A stretch of DNA of 25,741 bases from Candidatus Thorarchaeota archaeon (lineage in GTDB: Archaea; Asgardarchaeota; Thorarchaeia; Thorarchaeales; Thorarchaeaceae), in assembly GCA_038893995.1 (NCBI GenBank), contig JAWAQK010000035.1:1-25741 (forward strand), in the 5' to 3' direction. The notes beneath the pieces were generated by a model that saw only the letters and a program-made list of their open reading frames with translations, was not told the origin of the DNA and made no database searches. Shown piece by piece: positions 16,697 to 25,741 of the stretch (position 1 is the first letter of the stretch; each line of letters opens with the position of its first letter). The translations under genes and the position numbers were made by a program.

Positions 16697-18196
16697 TCAG
16701 GGGTAGTGGACCGAGGCCGCCAGAACAGCCCAGTCATATACAGGACCAAATACTGTCCCTGCGGCCACCACCACGACAACTGCAGCAATCAAGACCAGCC
16801 TTGTTGTCCTCGGAACACGGATCTGCACAGAAGCTGTTGATTCCACGAAGTAGCAGTGACGCACCACCCTCAGGTAGTACCCCAGGGAGTAGAGCGTGTT
16901 CACGACACCCGCTACCACTAGCCACAGCAGACCTGCTTCGAATGCACTCAAGAAGAGTGCGAACTTCGACAGGAAACCGACCGTGAATGGCATACCCGCC
17001 AGCGCAAGGACGAGTACAGAGAGACAGGCAGCCAGTATCGGAGAACGTCGGGCAAGACCCGAGAGGTCATCGTAGGTCACCGTCTTGGAGAGTTCTGCGC
17101 CCAGTGTCCATACGGCGATGAATGCAGCGCTCTTGGTCACAGCATGCGCAAATGCCGTATATAGCGCAGCAGCCAGACCTGATGCTGTTCCTGCGGCAAG
17201 ACCCATGAAGAGGTATCCCATCATGGCAATGCTCGAATATGCCAACATCCTTGCTATGCGTCTCTCCGCAAGCGCCAGCACGTTGCCTATCGTCATGGTC
17301 AGCACTGATACCACTGCAAGAACGGCGCCCAACAGTGTCAGCTGAGCGACCACAGGGAATACCATGAATATCCTTACGAGTGCTCCGATTCCTGTCTTCT
17401 TGCTGGCTCCTGCAAGATAACCCGCAACGCTGCCGTCTGCAGTACCGTAGGCATCGGGTACCCACATCCAGCCGGGGAAGATTCCTATCTTGAATCCAAA
17501 CGAGACAATCAGCAGGACAATGGCAACCAGAAGCGAATACGTTCGGTCGTCAATGGGACCAGACCATATCCCAGACACGGCCAGGCCAACTGCATGAAGC
17601 TCGGTCTCGCCCGTTGCGGCATAGATGAGCGTTATACCCAGCAACATCAATGCAATCGAGAGAAGACCCATGATGAAGTACTTCGTTGCCCCGTCAATCG
17701 CGCCCCTGTTCTCGCTCAGTGCGACAAGCACGTAGGTCGGAGTGGCCATGAGCTCAAAGGCCACAAATATCGCGATCAGGTCGTTGGCCATCACGACGAG
17801 GATCGCACCTGCGAACGACACTAGGAACATGAAGTTGTAACAGCCAAGATACTGATGGTGAGCCCTCGATGCGACCAGTACCATGACGCTCACAACAAGG
17901 ACTATCATGATGAAGAAATCCGAGTACACATCTCTGATGTACAGCCGCCCATAGCATTGGAGCGGATAGCTCGAGCTGTCAGTCAGAAGGCATGCCACCG
18001 CTGCCAATACTACACCGAGCACACTGAATGGGAGGGGGTCGCGGTGCAGACCGACACCCAGTGCGAGCAGGGCGAAGAGTACCAGTATGATCACTGGTAG
18101 AAGTCCTATGGCGGCTGGTGTCAGATATGACGAGGCAATTGCCCTGAGCCATGCGATGGCTGAGATGATCGGATCAAGAGGGGACTGCAACATCAT
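16697..18196 (-). CDS. nuoN: complex I-like antiporter subunit N (NuoN/FpoN)
   Basis: FVAFELMA (TM5 Glu), ATKYF, GFKIG..P..MWVPDAY, ASKK, RMLAYSSIA and GMP...GFLSKF (TM12 Lys). ATGA overlap with nuoM. Confidence 0.93.
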   Translation of the reverse strand: MMLQSPLDPIISAIAWLRAIASSYLTPAAIGLLPVIILVLFALLALGVGLHRDPLPFSVLGVVLAAVACLLTDSSSYPLQCYGRLYIRDVYSDFFIMIVLVVSVMVLVASRAHHQYLGCYNFMFLVSFAGAILVVMANDLIAIFVAFELMATPTYVLVALSENRGAIDGATKYFIMGLLSIALMLLGITLIYAATGETELHAVGLAVSGIWSGPIDDRTYSLLVAIVLLIVSFGFKIGIFPGWMWVPDAYGTADGSVAGYLAGASKKTGIGALVRIFMVFPVVAQLTLLGAVLAVVSVLTMTIGNVLALAERRIARMLAYSSIAMMGYLFMGLAAGTASGLAAALYTAFAHAVTKSAAFIAVWTLGAELSKTVTYDDLSGLARRSPILAACLSVLVLALAGMPFTVGFLSKFALFLSAFEAGLLWLVVAGVVNTLYSLGYYLRVVRHCYFVESTASVQIRVPRTTRLVLIAAVVVVVAAGTVFGPVYDWAVLAASVHYP

Positions 18197-19689
18197 GGTA
18201 CAACTCCTGCAATGTCAGACACTGCTTCTGAGATGATGACAAGTATCAGGTCGGGCCACACGCCCAGTGCCACCACAAACACTAGCATCACGGCTGGAGC
18301 CACGAGGTCGCTTAGCGATGCATCAGACATCGCACGGTCCTCCCGACCCTCACTATAGACCATGCGATTGAGCGTCCATAGGAAATAGCCAACCGTCACG
18401 AATATGCCGAACGCGATCAGTCCGGACCAGACGAAGACCTGGATCGAGCCAAAGAGGATCAGGACCTCCGCGACAAACCCGCTGAGCGTGGGGAGCCCGA
18501 ATGCCGCAAGCGATGCAAGTACAAACACCCCTGACAGACGGGGTGCACGTGAGCCTAGGCCTGACACCTCATCGATCATTCGAGATCCAGCAGAGTGCTT
18601 CAATAGACCTGCGACTATGAACAGGACCGAGATGATGGCCCCGTGAGAGAACATCATGAAGACAGCACCAACGATGGCGAGCTGAGACCCTGCGGCGACC
18701 CCCAGCAACACCCATGCCATGTGGTTGATCGACGTATATGCCACCAGTGACTTGAGGTCACCCTGTGCCATTGCAGTGAAGGCCGCGTAGATGCAGGTGA
18801 ACACCGCCAGTAGGGCGAACGGGACTGCAAGACGGAAGAATGCTCCTGCGTTAAGCCAGAGGCCCAGACGTACAAAGGCATAGCCACCCATCTTGAGAAG
18901 AATACCAGCCAGGACGACAGAACCCGGCGTGGGCGCCTTCACATGAGCGTAGGGAAGCCAATTGTGAAACGGCCAGACGGGCAACTTGACTCCGGCACCG
19001 AGGAACACTGCTATCGCAAACAGTACCTGGATCTCGAGTGGCACAGTTGACATGAGTGTCCTGAGTCGCAACATGTCCAGAGAGCCAGCGGTGACAAAGA
19101 CTGCGAAGAATCCGATCAGCATCGCCAGCGAACCGATCTGTGTGTATACGAAGAACTTCACAGCAGCATGTTGAGCCCCCTCCTCGCCCCATTCTCCAAT
19201 CACGAAGAACATTGGAATCAGTACTAGTTCCCAGAACAGGAAGAAGCCTATCAGATTGGTCGAGATGAAGACGCCGACGAGTCCTGTCTGAAGTAGGAGC
19301 ATCAGAGAATAGAATGACTTCTGAGAATGCTCTATGTGACTGGCCGAGAGGATTGCGACAAACATGACCAGGTTTGCAAGCAAGACCAGCACCACCGAGA
19401 TACCATCGACCCCAAGAGTGATGGCAATGGGCTCAGACATGATAGTGCCCATCACCAGGACTGTGTACGTGACCGCCTCATAGGAGTCCAGAGCAGGGTC
19501 AAACACAGACAGCATTGCAAGCGATAGGATCAGCTCAACAAGAGTCGCAGCGACCCCCACGTATCTTGCACGATGCTCCCCTGACATGAAGGCGACAATT
19601 GCACCGAGGAGTGGTAACAACAACAGGAAGGGGAGTGTTCCCATTGGGATCATGTTCAGGAGGTCACGTAGGACTGTTGTCGATTGCAT
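18193..19689 (-). CDS. nuoM: complex I-like antiporter subunit M (canonical copy)
   Basis: LGVDGIS, FWELVLIPMF, AAVKFFVYT, VKLPVWPFHNWLPYAHVKAPT.GSVVLAGILLKMGGY, AYTSINHM and GLP.LSGFVAE. TGATG overlap with nuoL. Confidence 0.94.
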   Translation of the reverse strand: MQSTTVLRDLLNMIPMGTLPFLLLLPLLGAIVAFMSGEHRARYVGVAATLVELILSLAMLSVFDPALDSYEAVTYTVLVMGTIMSEPIAITLGVDGISVVLVLLANLVMFVAILSASHIEHSQKSFYSLMLLLQTGLVGVFISTNLIGFFLFWELVLIPMFFVIGEWGEEGAQHAAVKFFVYTQIGSLAMLIGFFAVFVTAGSLDMLRLRTLMSTVPLEIQVLFAIAVFLGAGVKLPVWPFHNWLPYAHVKAPTPGSVVLAGILLKMGGYAFVRLGLWLNAGAFFRLAVPFALLAVFTCIYAAFTAMAQGDLKSLVAYTSINHMAWVLLGVAAGSQLAIVGAVFMMFSHGAIISVLFIVAGLLKHSAGSRMIDEVSGLGSRAPRLSGVFVLASLAAFGLPTLSGFVAEVLILFGSIQVFVWSGLIAFGIFVTVGYFLWTLNRMVYSEGREDRAMSDASLSDLVAPAVMLVFVVALGVWPDLILVIISEAVSDIAGVVP

Positions 19690-21905
19690 CAGAACACCCC
19701 CATCGCGATGAGACCCAGGATGACTATGAGACCTAGACCGAAAACCATCACAGCCGCATAGTCGTTGACGTGGCCAGTCTGTATTCTCTGTCCCCGTCTC
19801 GAGGCTTCGACGCTCGACGAGGCGATCTCCTCTGCAAGGCCATCGACCACGTGGTCGTCAAACCATCTGATCCGACGTGAGATGGACTTCCCTGCAGATG
19901 CCATTCCCATGTCTATGCCGTCGATTATTGAGTTGTCGACACGCACTCTCCACCACTCGGCAAGGGCCAGGAACTTCCCGACCACCCAATAGTAGAACTC
20001 GTTGATGTACCACCTGTGCCTCAGGAACGTGTACAGGCGTCTTAGAGGTCCGTGATCGGGAATCAGCCTCGGACGCTCATCGGCTCGTCTGACATAGATA
20101 GCGTAGGCTGGAACACCTCCTATAAATAGGGCCAGCATCGTGGCCCCAAAGGGCACGACTCCTGAGGCAGAGAACTTCACAGCCACAGCATCATAGAGTA
20201 GTGAGAGGTAGGCATCGGGTGTCAATGGGCCCGAGTGCTCCAGCAGGGACTGGATGAACGGGAACACTGCAATCGCAATGACTGTGAATGCGGCAAGTAT
20301 GTATAGTGGGACCATCATTATTGGACCTGGATCGTGGGGACTGTCATGGGCACTGTCTGGACTGGACCCATGATGTACGGTCTCGTGCGTGTCTTCGTGG
20401 ACCAACTGTTCACGTCCGTAGAACACCAGACCCATGAGGCGTACGGAGTAGAACACAGTACATCCAGCAGCCAAGACAGACAGGAGGAACAGGATGGTCC
20501 CAATGGGTTCGTGGAGCGCAAGCTCGTATGTGTACTCGATGATCGAGTCCTTCGACCAGAAGCCTGAGAGGGGTGGGACGCCTGAGAGAGCCAAGACCCC
20601 TATCCACATGACCACAAAGGTGCGTGGCATGTACCTTCTCAGTCCTCCCATCTTTGTGACATACTTGGTGTGGACCGCATGAATGACTCCGCCTGCGGCC
20701 AGGAAGAGCAGGGCCTTGAACGCACCGTGACTGACTACATGCAGAACTCCACTCACAAGGGCTGGTTCGTAGTGGGCTGCTAGGAGTCCTCCTGTACCGA
20801 TTGCCAGCATCATGTAGCCGAGCTGGCTCAGGGTCGAGAATGCCAGGATCTGCTTGAGCTCATTGGACACCATGCCCATTGTCGCGGTCATGAACGCAGT
20901 CAGGGCACCGACGACTGCCACGATCATGAAGAATACTGACACTGTCTCGAGTCCGTACAGCTGCAGGGGGACATAATGCTCACCAGACCCACCACCAGAT
21001 GATGCTCCAGCCATAGTGAGCAGGAGCCTGGCGGTCATATACACACCCGCCTTCACCATCGTCGCTGCATGGATGAGTGCGGACACCGATGTTGGACCGG
21101 CCATCGCCTCTGGCAGCCACACCTGCAGAGGCACCTGACCGGACTTGCCCATTGCACCCAGAAACACTAGAACAAGCATCGGGACGAGGATGCCCATCGA
21201 GGCCATCGACTGGAACCAGCCATTCTCCGGGTCTGCGAGCCCTCCTGTGCCGGTGAAGGAGAAGGTACCAGCAAATGAGAACAGGAGCAGAATACCTGCC
21301 AGCATGAACGCATCTCCGAACCGAGTGACCATGAAGGCCTTCGTCCCGCAGTGCGTGTTGTAGTGTCCCTCCGTCCTGAACTGCAACAGGGGATTCTTGT
21401 AGACGACTGGGTCTGCCTCACTCTCCGGTGGGTTCCTCTTGTCGTTCCAGAATCCAATCAGGCCAAAGGAACAGAAGCCCATGATCTCCCAACCCACAAA
21501 GGCAATCAGCAGGTTGTTGCTCAGGACCAGCGTCAGCATCCCGCCTCCAAAGGCCAGCATCAGGAAGAAGAACCGGTCTCGGTCGCCCTCATGAGCCATG
21601 TACTCGACGCTATACACGTAGATCAGAAAGCAGAGCGTGCTCGAGAGCACGGCCATGATCACGGAGAGTGGGTCGAGGAGTACCTCAAACTGGAGACCCA
21701 GTGACGGTATCCATATCCAGGAGGTGGGACCGGTTGGAGAGCCTATCTCTACCAGCAGGGACCAGCAGAAGACCATTGTCACACCCATGATGATGGCTGG
21801 AGTCCAGTCTCTGAGCCCCTGATTCACTCTACCTATCAGGGGGATCAATACGGACCCTGCCAACGGCAAGACGATGATGAGATAGTAGGGTAGTCCGAGC
21901 AGCAT
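19689..21905 (-). CDS. nuoL: complex I-like antiporter subunit L with elongated lateral helix
   Basis: DPLS, GWEIMG, RFGD, GKSGQVPLQVWLPEAMAGPTSVSALIHAATMVKAG, HGAFKALLFL, GFWSKD, WYINEFY and QTG. True start is ATG 21905 after a GGAGGTGA SD. The ORF-track extension to 22223 overlaps the upstream gene. Confidence 0.95.
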   Translation of the reverse strand: MLLGLPYYLIIVLPLAGSVLIPLIGRVNQGLRDWTPAIIMGVTMVFCWSLLVEIGSPTGPTSWIWIPSLGLQFEVLLDPLSVIMAVLSSTLCFLIYVYSVEYMAHEGDRDRFFFLMLAFGGGMLTLVLSNNLLIAFVGWEIMGFCSFGLIGFWNDKRNPPESEADPVVYKNPLLQFRTEGHYNTHCGTKAFMVTRFGDAFMLAGILLLFSFAGTFSFTGTGGLADPENGWFQSMASMGILVPMLVLVFLGAMGKSGQVPLQVWLPEAMAGPTSVSALIHAATMVKAGVYMTARLLLTMAGASSGGGSGEHYVPLQLYGLETVSVFFMIVAVVGALTAFMTATMGMVSNELKQILAFSTLSQLGYMMLAIGTGGLLAAHYEPALVSGVLHVVSHGAFKALLFLAAGGVIHAVHTKYVTKMGGLRRYMPRTFVVMWIGVLALSGVPPLSGFWSKDSIIEYTYELALHEPIGTILFLLSVLAAGCTVFYSVRLMGLVFYGREQLVHEDTHETVHHGSSPDSAHDSPHDPGPIMMVPLYILAAFTVIAIAVFPFIQSLLEHSGPLTPDAYLSLLYDAVAVKFSASGVVPFGATMLALFIGGVPAYAIYVRRADERPRLIPDHGPLRRLYTFLRHRWYINEFYYWVVGKFLALAEWWRVRVDNSIIDGIDMGMASAGKSISRRIRWFDDHVVDGLAEEIASSSVEASRRGQRIQTGHVNDYAAVMVFGLGLIVILGLIAMGVF

Positions 21906-21913
21906 GTTGACCG

Positions 21914-23440
21914 TCACCTCCAGGGTAGTATTCCACTGATGATCTCGACGAGGGGCTTTATGACATCGACCGCCAGCGCTGGAAAGACTCCGAAGATCAG
22001 TGTCAGGACAGCAAGGACGGTCATCGAGAGTGTCATGGAACGGGGAGCCTCGTGGACCTCCTCGAGATCCTCGGGGTGGGGTCCGAGGAACACAGTGGTG
22101 AAGAAGCGCAGCATATATGAGGCACTGAGAATGATACTGGATATTGCCACCACTGAGAGTACCAGGAAGGGAGTATTGCCGGTGGACTCGTACGCATGGA
22201 AGCCCCCGAGAAACATGAGCCACTCACTGGCGAATCCTGCCAGCGGGGGCGAGCCTGCAATGCTCATCGCACCCACAGCTGCCGCGAAGGCCGTCACTGG
22301 CATCTTGTTCGACAGCCCGCCCATTGCGCCTATGTCCCTCAGTTGTGTCTGGTGGATGACGGCGCCAGCACACATGAAGAGGAGACCCTTAGAGAGAGCA
22401 TGACTGACGAGATGAAACAGACCTCCCGTGACGCCTGACACGGTGAATACTCCAATCGCAAAGAGGACGTATCCCATCTGAGAGACCGATGAATAGGCCA
22501 GCAACCTCTTGATGTCTCTCTGTGCGAGAGCCATGATTCCGCCATAGAACATGGTCAACACACCAAGCATGGCGACCCAGAACGACAGGTCTATGGCAAC
22601 TGAGCTGAGGATGATTGTGTTGAATCTGACCATTGCATAGGCACCGGTCTCGATCATTGCACCAGACAGCAGGACGGATATTGGAGTTGGAGCCTCTGCG
22701 TGGACGGGTGGCAACCACCAATGTAGTGGAAAGACGGCCATCTTGACAAGGAACCCCGCAGCAAGAAGGACGTAGATGACCTTCAACGTGGTCAGAGAGC
22801 CAGTCAGGGCTGGAACGACAGTCTGGATGACCTGCATGTCGAGTGTGAGTGTACCTGTCTGAACGGACACTAGGTACGCGATCATACCGAATCCAATCAG
22901 TATGGTCACAGCACCTGCCTGTGTATACAGCCAGAACTTGATCGCAGTCCGTGTCCTCGTCTCGGGGACTCCCCAGAACAGGATCAGGAAGTACGTTGGA
23001 ACCAGCATGATCTCCCACGCGATAAAGAACTCCACCAGGTTCGTGGCCAGTGTGACCCATTGCATGCCCATGAGGAAGAAGAGATGGTTCGCAAAGAACG
23101 TGGGCCTGTTCTCAGCATGCTCGGTATAGCCCACTGCGTAGGTCACCGACGTCAGCCCGAGGACCACCACTGCGAGCGTCACTGGAAATGAGATGCCGTC
23201 TAGTCTGAGCCCAAACTCTCCAAGGATGGTTGACCATCTCAGCCCCTCGTAGGCAGTGCCTCGTTCCACCATGACACGGAAGAACGGAGGGACCATCAGG
23301 AACGTTGCGATGAGCGAGACCGTACTCGCAACAACTCCACAACCATGTCCCAGACGACCCTTGGCGAGGTATATCCCGAGCCCTCCCAGGAATAGCACTG
23401 CCAGTGACAGACCCATGAATGGTATCTCGACCAGCTGCAT
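21914..23440 (-). CDS. nuoM: second NuoM-like antiporter subunit (M'; NuoM/MrpD/HyfB-type)
   Basis: LRLDGIS, FIAWEIMLVP, AIKFWLYT, VKMAVFPLHWWLP..HAEAPTPIS, KRLLAYSSVSQMGY and PPLAGFASEW (M-type TM12 Glu). Start ATG 23440 via TGATG overlap with nuoI and a GGAGG SD. Confidence 0.88.
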   Translation of the reverse strand: MQLVEIPFMGLSLAVLFLGGLGIYLAKGRLGHGCGVVASTVSLIATFLMVPPFFRVMVERGTAYEGLRWSTILGEFGLRLDGISFPVTLAVVVLGLTSVTYAVGYTEHAENRPTFFANHLFFLMGMQWVTLATNLVEFFIAWEIMLVPTYFLILFWGVPETRTRTAIKFWLYTQAGAVTILIGFGMIAYLVSVQTGTLTLDMQVIQTVVPALTGSLTTLKVIYVLLAAGFLVKMAVFPLHWWLPPVHAEAPTPISVLLSGAMIETGAYAMVRFNTIILSSVAIDLSFWVAMLGVLTMFYGGIMALAQRDIKRLLAYSSVSQMGYVLFAIGVFTVSGVTGGLFHLVSHALSKGLLFMCAGAVIHQTQLRDIGAMGGLSNKMPVTAFAAAVGAMSIAGSPPLAGFASEWLMFLGGFHAYESTGNTPFLVLSVVAISSIILSASYMLRFFTTVFLGPHPEDLEEVHEAPRSMTLSMTVLAVLTLIFGVFPALAVDVIKPLVEIISGILPWR

Positions 23441-23871
23441 CACCTGAACCTCCTTCCACGCCACCTGAGAGGCTCGCGATCAAGCGTCGCCATCCTATCA
23501 GGCCCGTAGACCAGGTCCTCACGTTCACCCTCACTCAGGTCGGTGACCGGTGTGTGGAACAGTGCATTGAACCTACAGGCCTGAACGCAGAGCCCGCAGA
23601 AGATGCACCGAGTGTAGTCAAAGTACAGGGCGGCGTCCTTCTCGAACTTCCGGTCGCTCTTGTCAATCCGAATTGCGACGTTGGGGCAGGCACGTACACA
23701 CTGGGCGCAGGCCGTGCAGTTCTCCCTGATATGTATGTGCCGTCCTCTTGTACGAGCAGGGTAGTAACGGTCCTCGTACGGATAGAGATTCGTGATGGGC
23801 CGCTCGAATATCTGACGGAATACGTGCCTCAGGACATGAAATATGTCGCCCAGTGCCTTGAAGAACGTCAA
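23440..23871 (-). CDS. nuoI: complex I-like subunit I, 2x[4Fe-4S] ferredoxin
   Basis: T.LYPYE...P.R.RG.H, CTACAQCVRACP and CIFCGLCVQAC. TTG start after a GGAGGTGGGTGA SD. Confidence 0.93.
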   Translation of the reverse strand: MTFFKALGDIFHVLRHVFRQIFERPITNLYPYEDRYYPARTRGRHIHIRENCTACAQCVRACPNVAIRIDKSDRKFEKDAALYFDYTRCIFCGLCVQACRFNALFHTPVTDLSEGEREDLVYGPDRMATLDREPLRWRGRRFR

Positions 23872-23874
23872 TTC

Positions 23875-25029
23875 TCACCCACCTCCTGTCACAATGGCGA
23901 TCAGCCACGGATTGTAGGCAAGCACCAACAGAGTCACGGCGAGGTTCAGGATTGAGAGCGGAAACAGGTATTTCCAGGAGTAGTAGACGACCTGATCCTG
24001 TCGGATCCTGAAGAATGAGGACGTCAGTATCACAAAGAAGAACATCACTATGAGGGTCTTCACCATGAAGTTCACCACGGGCGGCAGAAAAGGCAGTCCG
24101 TAGGAGCCACCCAGGAACAGTGCCACGGTCATGGCTGAGAACAGGAACTGCTTTGCAAATTCAGCAAAGTACGTCAGGGTGAAGTAGATCCCCGAGAACT
24201 CGGTTCGCCACCCGAAGATGATCTCCGAGTCAGCAACCGGAGCATCGAAGGGAACCAGTCCGGTGACAGCCTCTGCGCTGACCAGAAACGTGACGCAACT
24301 CACAGGCAGAAGGAACACGTACCAGACGTTGCTCTGGGAGGCTGAGATGTTCATCAGGCTCAGACTACCAGCCAACAATGCGGGCCCCACTGCCGAGAGA
24401 ATGAGGGGGATCTCTGCGGCAAATTGGTTGTTTGCGGCCCTGAAGCCCCCGACGACCGTATACTTGGAGCCACAGAACCAACCTGACAGCAGGGAGACTA
24501 CGGGTACAGCCGTCAGAAACGCAAAGACCAGTAGGAGACTCACTGAGAGGTCAGCAATGTACCACTCATTGTCCCAGGGGATGAAGGCAAATGGGATCAG
24601 GACGACCGCGAGGAGCATTGACGGTAGAAGTCGATACATCCACCGCCTTGCACCAACGGGGATAATGGTCTCCTTTGACACAAGCTTGATGGCGTCCGCG
24701 AATAACTGCAGACCGCCGAACTTGCCCATGTGATATGGTCCGCGTCTTGCCTGGATCCGACCCCAGAGCTTTCTCGTGAACCAGACTGCATAGATTATCC
24801 CCAACACGATGAATACCAGACCTGGGAACACTATGGACTTGAACAGGAACCAGAAGTTGTCGATGGCGAGTCCCCAGATCCAGACGAATACGCCCCAGGC
24901 CCAGACGAAGACTCCGTGGAGGACCGAATACAGCCACGTTATGATCCCCCATATCCAGTCTGGAATGCCACGCAGCCACTGAAAGATGTCAAACTGAAGT
25001 GGTGCCATGCTCTGAATACCGTCCGTCAT
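23875..25029 (-). CDS. nuoH: complex I-like subunit H (NuoH/FpoH) with Trp-rich N-terminal extension
   Basis: VFPG, RK..GRIQ.RRGP, GGLQLFADAIKL..KE, SKY...GGFRAA, PFD...SEI..G..TEFSG and FRIRQDQ. ATG 25029 overlaps the nuoD stop (ATGA). Confidence 0.92.
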   Translation of the reverse strand: MTDGIQSMAPLQFDIFQWLRGIPDWIWGIITWLYSVLHGVFVWAWGVFVWIWGLAIDNFWFLFKSIVFPGLVFIVLGIIYAVWFTRKLWGRIQARRGPYHMGKFGGLQLFADAIKLVSKETIIPVGARRWMYRLLPSMLLAVVLIPFAFIPWDNEWYIADLSVSLLLVFAFLTAVPVVSLLSGWFCGSKYTVVGGFRAANNQFAAEIPLILSAVGPALLAGSLSLMNISASQSNVWYVFLLPVSCVTFLVSAEAVTGLVPFDAPVADSEIIFGWRTEFSGIYFTLTYFAEFAKQFLFSAMTVALFLGGSYGLPFLPPVVNFMVKTLIVMFFFVILTSSFFRIRQDQVVYYSWKYLFPLSILNLAVTLLVLAYNPWLIAIVTGGG

Positions 25030-25741
25030 CTGTCCCACCATCCTGGATATGGGTCTAGGCTACCGAAGATAACGATAAAGTCTGCAAATCTGGCCCCAGG
25101 CACTAGGTGTTTCAGCGCGTAGTATGAGTTGAAACAGGGTCCTCTGACCTTGGCCCGGTACGGAGTCTGTGCCTTGTCAGTCGTCTTGAGCCAGACTGTG
25201 GTGATACCTCTTGTTCCCTCGACCCGCCCATATGCCTCGCCCGCAGGAAGTCTGTTGGTCTTGGCTCGGGCCTTGGGGTCCACTATGGGTCCACTCGGGA
25301 GTTGACGCAGTAGCCCTCTGATGATCTGGATTGAGGTCTCCATCTCCAAGAAGCGCTGCACCATCCTGTCATATGCATCACTCTCGCCAGGATGCTCTGG
25401 GCTCTCAACCACTGGCACCTCCCAGTCGACCATGTCGTAGGCAAGATTGGGGTCAGGGGCGTCCTTCCGGAGGTCCATGGGAATGCCACAGGCCTTTATG
25501 TTCGGGCCACTTAGACCCAGCCTGAGAGCCTGCTTTCCACTGAACTGTCCCACGCCCTTTGTCCGGAGGCGGAAGGTCGGACTGCCCATCAGCATGTCGC
25601 GGAACTTGGGAAGCCTCTCCTCGAGACGAGAGACCGCCTGCTCGAGCCTTGCCACCGACTTCTCGGTGAAGTCATACCTGACGCCGCCAGGAGTGCTGTA
25701 GGACACTGTGTGCCGAGACCCAGTCAGCTCCTCGAAGGCAT
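25026..25741 (-). CDS. nuoD: complex I-like subunit D (NuoD/FpoD; hydrogenase large-subunit homolog), 5'-truncated by window edge
   Basis: The frame is open to the window end (AFEELTGSRHTVSYSTPGGVRYD). Motifs: RTKGVG, GLSGP..KACG..MDLRKD, DAYDR...RFLEM..S, GEAY..VEG.RG, PYR.KVRGP and ADFIVIFGSLDPYPGWWDR. Confidence 0.9.
   Translation of the reverse strand, partial: AFEELTGSRHTVSYSTPGGVRYDFTEKSVARLEQAVSRLEERLPKFRDMLMGSPTFRLRTKGVGQFSGKQALRLGLSGPNIKACGIPMDLRKDAPDPNLAYDMVDWEVPVVESPEHPGESDAYDRMVQRFLEMETSIQIIRGLLRQLPSGPIVDPKARAKTNRLPAGEAYGRVEGTRGITTVWLKTTDKAQTPYRAKVRGPCFNSYYALKHLVPGARFADFIVIFGSLDPYPGWWDR

Follow-up and report, generated by a model that had tools for sequence, protein, structure and literature searches.

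Among known prokaryotes, the Asgard archaea are the nearest relatives of eukaryotes, and the energy conservation of their anaerobic lineages is still debated from gene lists. The DNA analysed here is a contig of Candidatus (Ca.) Thorarchaeota, a group placed by NCBI in the Asgard kingdom Promethearchaeati (GenBank contig JAWAQK010000035.1 of assembly GCA_038893995.1, referred to as C35). It carries genes resembling those of complex I, and thus raises the question of what kind of respiratory-type enzyme they specify, how many ion pumps this enzyme would hold, and which electron donor and acceptor it would connect. The window, that is, the whole contig of 25,741 bases from a 2.33 Mb genome (91% complete), covers the distal half of an operon of 13 genes common to many Thorarchaeota. 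That this operon encodes a four-pump, '2M'-type relative of complex I devoid of NuoEFG is well supported. We further consider it likely that the enzyme is membrane-bound, passes electrons from ferredoxin to a prenylated carrier, bears a side module consisting of a flavin adenine dinucleotide (FAD) domain and an HdrD-like protein, and was built from two old NuoM lineages. Many Thorarchaeota would then carry a complex I relative built for high ion yield.

A coupled operon with four antiporter-like subunits

The genes of interest occupy the minus strand from 16697 to the end of the contig, in the order D, H, I, M', L, M and N, with M' preceding L and a canonical-type M following it.

25026..25741, minus strand: nuoD-like gene, C-terminal 237 aa (Complex1_49kDa, 2.9e-57)
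23875..25041, minus strand: nuoH-like gene, 388 aa (NADHdh, 4.5e-82, residues 75-370)
23440..23871, minus strand: nuoI-like gene, 143 aa (TIGR01971 NuoI, 3.3e-25; Fer4 families; two 4Fe-4S motifs)
21914..23464, minus strand: M', 516 aa (Proton_antipo_M, 3e-69; NDH_I_M, 304 bits, cut-off 264)
19689..21905, minus strand: nuoL-like gene, 738 aa (NDH_I_L, 461 bits, cut-off 407; Proton_antipo_N)
19773..20015, minus strand: lateral helix HL of L, residues 631-711 (motif D-x-x-[IV]-[IV]-D-G twice)
18193..19689, minus strand: M, canonical NuoM type, 498 aa (NDH_I_M, 420 bits)
16697..18196, minus strand: nuoN-like gene, 499 aa, last gene of the operon (NDH_I_N, 281 bits, below the cut-off of 333; in the N clade in trees)

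Matches to Proton_antipo_M were found in four window proteins (3e-69 to 4.8e-54). The spacing between consecutive genes is short or negative (D/H -16, H/I +3, I/M' -25, M'/L +8, L/M -1 and M/N -4 nt) and a GGAGG-like site stands ahead of each of the six junctions, confirming tight translational coupling of the window's seven genes. The original prediction, made from the DNA letters, had proposed a coupled operon of precisely these seven genes with four full-length antiporter-like subunits, and both proposals were borne out by the family matches and by junctions ranging from -25 to +8 nt. With regard to gene boundaries, the longest frame of L (22223-19689, 844 aa) overlaps M' by 310 nt, but similarity to other proteins sets in at the ATG at 21905, which corresponds to a protein of 738 aa. 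An alternative start of M' may be the ATG at 23440, which would give 508 aa and a 1-nt overlap with the stop codon of I. In the NuoH protein (23875-25041), the family match is preceded by an N-terminal extension of about 65 residues.

Contig C35 ends inside D. Joined directly, end to start, with contig C21 of the same genome, it yields a D frame without interruption, and the upstream half of the operon was located on C21 by tblastn with queries from a complete chromosome of Thorarchaeota (locus L024). Across C21 and C35 the complete order reads FAD-oxidase::NuoB fusion-x1-A-J-K-C-D-H-I-M'-L-M-N, with J and K upstream of C and not between I and L. All of the core 11 subunits (A, B, C, D, H, I, J, K, L, M and N) are thus encoded in one cluster. 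The upstream genes sought on the basis of the seven-gene set were thereby recovered, namely A, C, J, K and, as a fusion, B, with neither E, F and G nor FpoF among them. NuoE, NuoF and NuoG are absent from the cluster, and about 20 relatives have the same gene set. The gene order was found to be identical in about 20 loci of metagenome-assembled genomes (MAGs) labelled Thorarchaeota, and an ortholog of M is present in 55 of the 85 genomes of the window's own family. Each operon protein is 52-80% identical to proteins of MAGs labelled Thorarchaeota, in agreement with the Asgard host that had been thought probable.

A '2M' complex I was reportedly described in Nitrospira, Chloroflexi and other lineages by Chadwick, Hemp, Fischer and Orphan in 2018 (ISME J 12:2668). 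According to papers citing that work, its marks are an extra NuoM and some 26 residues inserted into the amphipathic lateral helix HL of NuoL (PMC9040806, PMC7117926, PMC7300363, bioRxiv 10.1101/2021.05.03.442362); the citing papers also describe the second M as a nuoM duplication, with the two genes adjacent in Chloroflexi, and archaeal 2M enzymes (Nitrososphaerales, heterotrophic marine Thaumarchaeota and Ca. Angelarchaeales) as having no NuoEFG in the cluster. Measured against these descriptions, the Thorarchaeota enzyme resembles 2M complex I in its fourth NuoM-family pump, in its HL insertion of about 26 residues and in the extra ion proposed per cycle, and it resembles the archaeal 2M enzymes in a cluster without NuoEFG. 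It differs from the described 2M complex I, however, in the order M'-L-M-N in place of L-M1-M2-N, in having M genes from old, separate NuoM lineages instead of neighbouring duplicates, in the position of A, J and K ahead of C, and in the fusion of NuoB to a FAD-linked oxidase.

Two NuoM lineages in one operon

All four pump subunits keep the Glu of transmembrane helix (TM) 5 and the Lys of TM7, and the TM12 residue is Glu in M' and M and Lys in L and N. The affiliation of M' and M was analysed in two IQ-TREE trees, the second of which included named NuoL/M/N, MrpA/D and HyfB/D/F references; MbhH sequences were absent from both. In both trees M' and M fell within the NuoM family with 97% support in the Shimodaira-Hasegawa-like approximate likelihood ratio test (SH-aLRT), apart from MrpD, MrpA/NuoL, NuoN and HyfB/F. 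The fourth antiporter-like subunit encoded with nuoL, nuoM and nuoN is hence a member of the NuoM family. The earlier assignment of M' to NuoM, and not to MrpD, MrpA or HyfB/F, was accordingly sustained by the trees, while MbhH, which they did not include, scores like NuoM by sequence. Among solved structures, the best match of M' was chain X of the sulfane sulfur reductase MBS (6u8y, 203 bits), with MrpA, MbhH and NuoM following at about 175 bits, and that of M was a NuoM chain (266 bits). An MrpD-type identity of M' was set aside on its placement in the NuoM family.

Within that family the two subunits part company. M forms a clade with the NuoM proteins of E. coli, Legionella and M. avium (100% SH-aLRT), and M' groups (87%) with the sole M of three-pump archaeal operons, found in the order K-M'-L-N in Nitrososphaerales and in a K-L-M'-N-like order in Hermodarchaeota. 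A tree in which Thorarchaeota M' and M were forced into a single clade was rejected by the approximately unbiased (AU) test, with a difference in log-likelihood of 88.7 and a p-AU of 5.8e-8 for a group that was chosen after inspection of the tree. The AU test ruled out recent duplication as the source of M' and M. The second M of the Thorarchaeota is thus not a nuoM duplicate, the order being M'-L-M-N and the two genes belonging to separate NuoM lineages.

Since M' groups with the sole M of three-pump archaea and M with bacterial NuoM, it appears likelier from these sequence comparisons that M' is the resident archaeal M and that the addition is the M of canonical type encoded between L and N. 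This reverses the labelling of the original prediction, in which L, M and N were canonical and M' was the extra subunit. The four-pump state is best explained as the union of two old NuoM lineages and not as a recent duplication, and the four-pump design would on this account have been reached in Thorarchaeota by a route other than duplication.

Two sets of relatives are informative in this respect. The Nitrososphaerales enzyme NuoABCDHIJKMLN (11 subunits; loci L035-L039 and L047) provides some of the nearest relatives that M' (about 40% identity) and L have outside the Asgard archaea, and like the Thorarchaeota enzyme it has M' before L, no NuoEFG and a D subunit without an equivalent of Tyr87. 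Unlike the latter, it has three operon pump genes, an HL of normal length and a free-standing NuoB. Two loci labelled Promethearchaeota (L033 and L034) share with Thorarchaeota the four pump genes in the order M'-L-M-N, and their canonical-type M is sister to Thorarchaeota M with 95% support. In contrast to Thorarchaeota, they show the canonical order B-C-D-H-I-J-K-M'-L-M-N and a free-standing NuoB, and their L, M' and N group with Nitrososphaerales proteins. An HdrD-like gene lies just downstream of each of these two operons (L033:5407-12167 and L034:5448-12175).

The lateral helix of NuoL

The original prediction had also suggested a lengthened NuoL helix, and this was found to be so, by one module of 26 residues. 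The motif D-x-x-[IV]-[IV]-D-G occurs in L at residues 657-664 and 683-690 (approximately 19836-19937), the copies being 26 residues apart, and each copy aligns to the single copy of solved NuoL and NdhF chains. Counted from the R-W-Y anchor to Q-T-G, the HL spans 78 residues in the window's L and 78-79 in all 24 Thorarchaeota L proteins, compared with 50 in E. coli, 52 in a Bacteroidales locus and 53 in four Hermodarchaeota and five Nitrososphaerales loci (52 for Nitrososphaerales by hand count). Thorarchaeota L therefore carries the HL insertion of about 26 residues that marks 2M enzymes. An AlphaFold2 model of L (predicted template modelling score 0.80), which was used for secondary structure only, placed helices at residues 620-629, 632-694 and 702-708, followed by TM16 at 713-734.

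The single extra module and the fourth pump gene co-occur for all 24 Thorarchaeota L proteins, and both are absent from the nearest three-pump relatives; one Nitrososphaerota genome with the short helix has only three antiporter-like genes genome-wide. In L033 and L034 the HL contains two extra modules of 26-27 residues, with a span of 106, as compared with the one module of Thorarchaeota. Given this double insertion, and the grouping of L, M' and N of these loci with proteins of Nitrososphaerales, lengthening of the HL probably happened more than once in archaea, and HL length is not always equal to the number of pump genes.

A flavoprotein fused to NuoB and its predicted HdrD-like partner

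The first gene of the operon, on C21, encodes a protein of 646 aa in which FAD_binding_4 and FAD-oxidase_C domains precede NuoB. The FAD domain belongs to the GlcD/Dld family (glcD, 138 bits over the full length), and its best solved matches were LctD of the lactate dehydrogenase/electron transfer flavoprotein (Etf) complex and mitochondrial D-lactate dehydrogenase. The fusion was found in about 48 protein clusters at 70-80% identity and in none below 70%, the named ones nearly all being labelled Thorarchaeota, whereas relatives below 70% identity are either unfused or fused to Fer4/CCG domains. A tblastn search of the same genome found no free NuoB for this complex, NuoB being present only as the fusion; in three further Thorarchaeota genomes the fusion lies near the operon, and a free NuoB occurs in the genome of L033 and in a Nitrososphaerota genome. 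The ligands of cluster N2 in the NuoB part, including the tandem cysteines (G-C-C, C and C-P; C512, C513, C577 and C607), are invariant in 19 fused NuoB sequences.

Divergently oriented from the fusion gene is a gene for an HdrD-like protein of 407 aa. This protein contains two CCG domains along with two 4Fe-4S motifs and resembles TfrB, LdhH, GlpC, GlcF and HdrD. The two genes adjoin each other in 12 loci and lie within 10 kb in four more genomes. A complex-structure prediction was performed for the FAD domain (residues 1-450, with FAD) and the HdrD-like protein. The interaction score from aligned errors (ipSAE) reached 0.90, 0.91 and 0.90, while the best control gave 0.00; 58 of 80 solved complexes attained the mark applied to this score, as did 2 of 110 mismatched pairs. 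At least 93% of contacts were shared between the runs, and a predicted local distance difference test score (pLDDT) of 91 was obtained for the partner. In the predicted interface, the ferredoxin-like N-terminus of the partner (residues 13-88) sits on the FAD-binding domain. These models support the prediction that the HdrD-like protein binds the fused FAD domain.

A similar combination of a GlcD/Dld-family FAD domain with a CCG/HdrD-family partner is known from the YdiJ type (9ojn, 1042 aa) and from LctD (7qh2). Whereas those enzymes have both parts in one chain, in Thorarchaeota the FAD domain resides on NuoB and the CCG protein is encoded by a separate, divergent gene; the fusion, moreover, reads P-H-S-T-G in place of EHGxG. 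The same Thorarchaeota genome encodes six more FAD-linked oxidase (GlcD/Dld-like) paralogs, on contigs C9, C25, C26, C6, C36 and C7, and among the seven genome paralogs E-H-G-I-G was seen in that of C36 only. The operon further encodes x1, a conserved protein with four TM helices, between the fusion and A; it matched no Pfam or NCBIfam family, and its Atlas scores were all below 0.9.

The fusion of NuoB to a flavoprotein is specific to Thorarchaeota and is the most unusual part of the operon. While the four-pump design with a long helix is known from other microbes, the NuoB fusion sets the Thorarchaeota enzyme apart; in the literature searched, neither the Thorarchaeota four-pump complex nor a flavoprotein-NuoB fusion was found to be described. 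In public data the fusion proteins are mostly annotated simply as NuoB. The fusion and its predicted HdrD-like partner name a concrete point of electron entry or exit that this annotation has masked, which opens the electron donor and acceptor of a respiratory-type enzyme from Asgard archaea to direct testing. Extra pump subunits with a 26-residue helix insertion are likewise found in Complex_I_3 of Ca. Manganitrophaceae (PMC9040806), which differs in being bacterial, in having five pumps, with two MrpD-like subunits replacing NuoL, and in the lack of a flavoprotein fusion.

Redox sites and the proposed mechanism

The NiFe cysteines are missing from the end of D, whose C-terminal residues are D-P-Y-P-G-W-W-D-R, so that the NiFe site is lost. 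At the N-terminus the motif R-L-C-M keeps one cysteine, the first of the NiFe motif, as does R-I-C-V of MbsL, and the equivalent of His38 is retained (S-A-H-G; numbering of T. thermophilus Nqo4). Three genes of prenyl metabolism adjoin the operon. One codes for a MenA-like prenyltransferase, which at 107.7 bits exceeds the TIGR00751 cut-off of 102.15, and the other two for a geranylgeranyl reductase and a prenyl diphosphate synthase. In all five Thorarchaeota genomes examined, the gene resembling MenA was located within 26 kb of the operon. On C21, the HdrD-like Fe-S gene and the three prenyl genes stand together beside the operon (L070:5485-11467).

In the mechanism that we propose, M', L, M and N would be held together in one membrane arm under the longer HL, as has been proposed for 2M complex I. 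The most likely donor would be reduced ferredoxin at NuoI, as in similar enzymes without NuoEFG, and the most likely acceptor a prenylated membrane carrier, in keeping with the prenyltransferase, synthase and reductase genes beside the operon. Four pumps together with the E-channel could move about five ions per two electrons, the extra ion being paid for by the larger redox span available from ferredoxin; this fifth ion per two electrons is a hypothesis for all 2M enzymes. The D-lactate-dehydrogenase-like FAD domain on NuoB, with the HdrD/GlcF-like protein, could provide a second electron entry or exit at the base of the peripheral arm.

Alternative readings of the operon

A number of observations weigh against this picture of a four-pump, ferredoxin-driven carrier reductase. 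With respect to the acceptor, Met replaces the quinone-ligating Tyr87 in all Thorarchaeota D (E-R-L-C-M-L), and neither MqnA/D, MenD or MenB over cut-off nor quinol-oxidising membrane subunits of the NrfD or NarI/HdrE type were found in the 91%-complete genome; given that no Men or Mqn head-group pathway was seen there, the organism may prenylate an uncharacterised or salvaged aromatic head group. With respect to the side module, the FAD domain does not have the canonical E-H-G-x-G motif, which is catalytic in D-lactate and D-2-hydroxyglutarate dehydrogenases, and reads H-G-G-H-P-H-S-T-G; solved single-chain fusions of FAD and Fe-S domains (9ojn, 1042 aa) may also have aided the complex prediction. 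With respect to the membrane arm, AlphaFold2 modelled the HL stretch of L with a low pLDDT of 40-60, and L033 and L034 combine four pump genes with two extra HL modules. Several of these points would fit a closed circuit, in which the flavoprotein-HdrD module on NuoB is the real electron outlet (or inlet in reverse) and replaces the quinone pool. The enzyme would then be an ion-translocating ferredoxin:2-oxoacid/2-hydroxyacid (or disulfide) oxidoreductase that could do without a quinone pool. A bound prenylated carrier would serve only as a shuttle between N2 and the CCG clusters, and the fourth pump would tune the ions moved per electron pair to a small redox span at a low membrane potential; operating backwards, the enzyme would use the ion gradient to reduce ferredoxin with electrons from a 2-hydroxyacid. 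Such a circuit would accord with the occurrence of NuoB only as the fusion in these genomes, with the modelled binding of the HdrD-like partner, with the missing Tyr87, head-group pathway and quinol-oxidising membrane partner, with LctD of the lactate dehydrogenase/Etf complex as the best solved match of the FAD domain, and with the Dld-HdrD pairs of other Asgard lineages (PMC9723677). The D subunits of Nitrososphaerales (L035-L039 and L047; presumably quinone-using aerobes), however, also have no Tyr87 equivalent, their motif being E-R-S-S-L-T-D, and since aerobic respirers lack this Tyr too, its loss is compatible with quinone use. The presence of the MenA-like cluster next to the operon speaks in favour of a genuine lipid-soluble carrier, the FAD domain is without EHGxG, and the missing genes are missing from a genome that is only 91% complete. 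We regard a closed circuit as unlikely.

The remaining alternatives concern the number of pumps and the identity of the enzyme class. M' and M could be interchangeable middle subunits, comparable to the NdhD paralogs of cyanobacteria, so that each complex would contain only three pumps, with another component, for example the four-TM protein x1, taking up the longer helix. Both subunits are of NuoM type and each is the sole M of some three-pump complex, and helix length and pump-gene number do disagree in L033 and L034. Such an exchange is nevertheless improbable, as M' and M are encoded in one translationally coupled operon with L between them, all channel residues are kept in both, and the one extra module and the fourth gene come together in all 24 Thorarchaeota L and are lacking in the nearest three-pump relatives. 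A ferredoxin-driven reductase of sulfane sulfur or polysulfide, akin to MBS of Pyrococcus furiosus or to MBX, in place of a carrier reductase, is suggested by solved structures, with chain L of MBS (MbsL, 6u8y_L; 199 bits over the full length) being the best match for D and chain X (203 bits) for M', as well as by the first N-terminal NiFe-motif cysteine that D shares with MbsL. NdhH (195 bits) and Nqo4 (187 bits), however, score nearly as high for D, and NuoB carries the tandem-cysteine motif of complex I. Unlike MBS, the operon also encodes NuoA, J, K and N and a NuoL with HL, and its genes include none of the MnhB, C, E, F and G families, the Mrp-type small subunits that are found in MBS or the membrane-bound hydrogenase MBH; we consequently give an MBS-like function little credence. 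An F420H2 dehydrogenase of the Fpo/Fqo type with its FpoF-like subunit encoded elsewhere appears very improbable. The genome does contain one gene of the FrhB/FpoF family (contig C79), but the NCBIfam models scored far below their cut-offs (FpoD 148 against 600, FpoH 215 against 475, FpoI 62 against 180 and FpoL 312 against 1050) and neither FpoF nor FpoO was found in or near the operon at any locus. The F420 input considered in the original prediction was thus not borne out, and a four-pump enzyme driven by ferredoxin is the reading that we prefer.

Other genes of the window and genome

Two further sets of complex I/hydrogenase-like genes were noted in the same genome. One, at C65:5777-10435, comprises NuoB-, D-, H- and I-like genes and a divergent antiporter-like gene; the other, at C6:59909-61788, comprises a NuoC-like gene and an antiporter-like gene at a contig end. 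The remainder of the window is occupied by genes of other kinds. Between 7110 and 16596 it encodes three very large putative surface proteins, of which one (1101 aa) contains Big_7 domains, and the other two, 769 and 1136 aa long, are of the NosD/beta-helix kind, carry TcfC-like E-set domains and are encoded directly downstream of nuoN. Five open reading frames of 164-484 aa between 1619 and 6906 gave no Pfam match at 1e-5, and a pyridine nucleotide-disulfide oxidoreductase of 453 aa is encoded at 105-1466.

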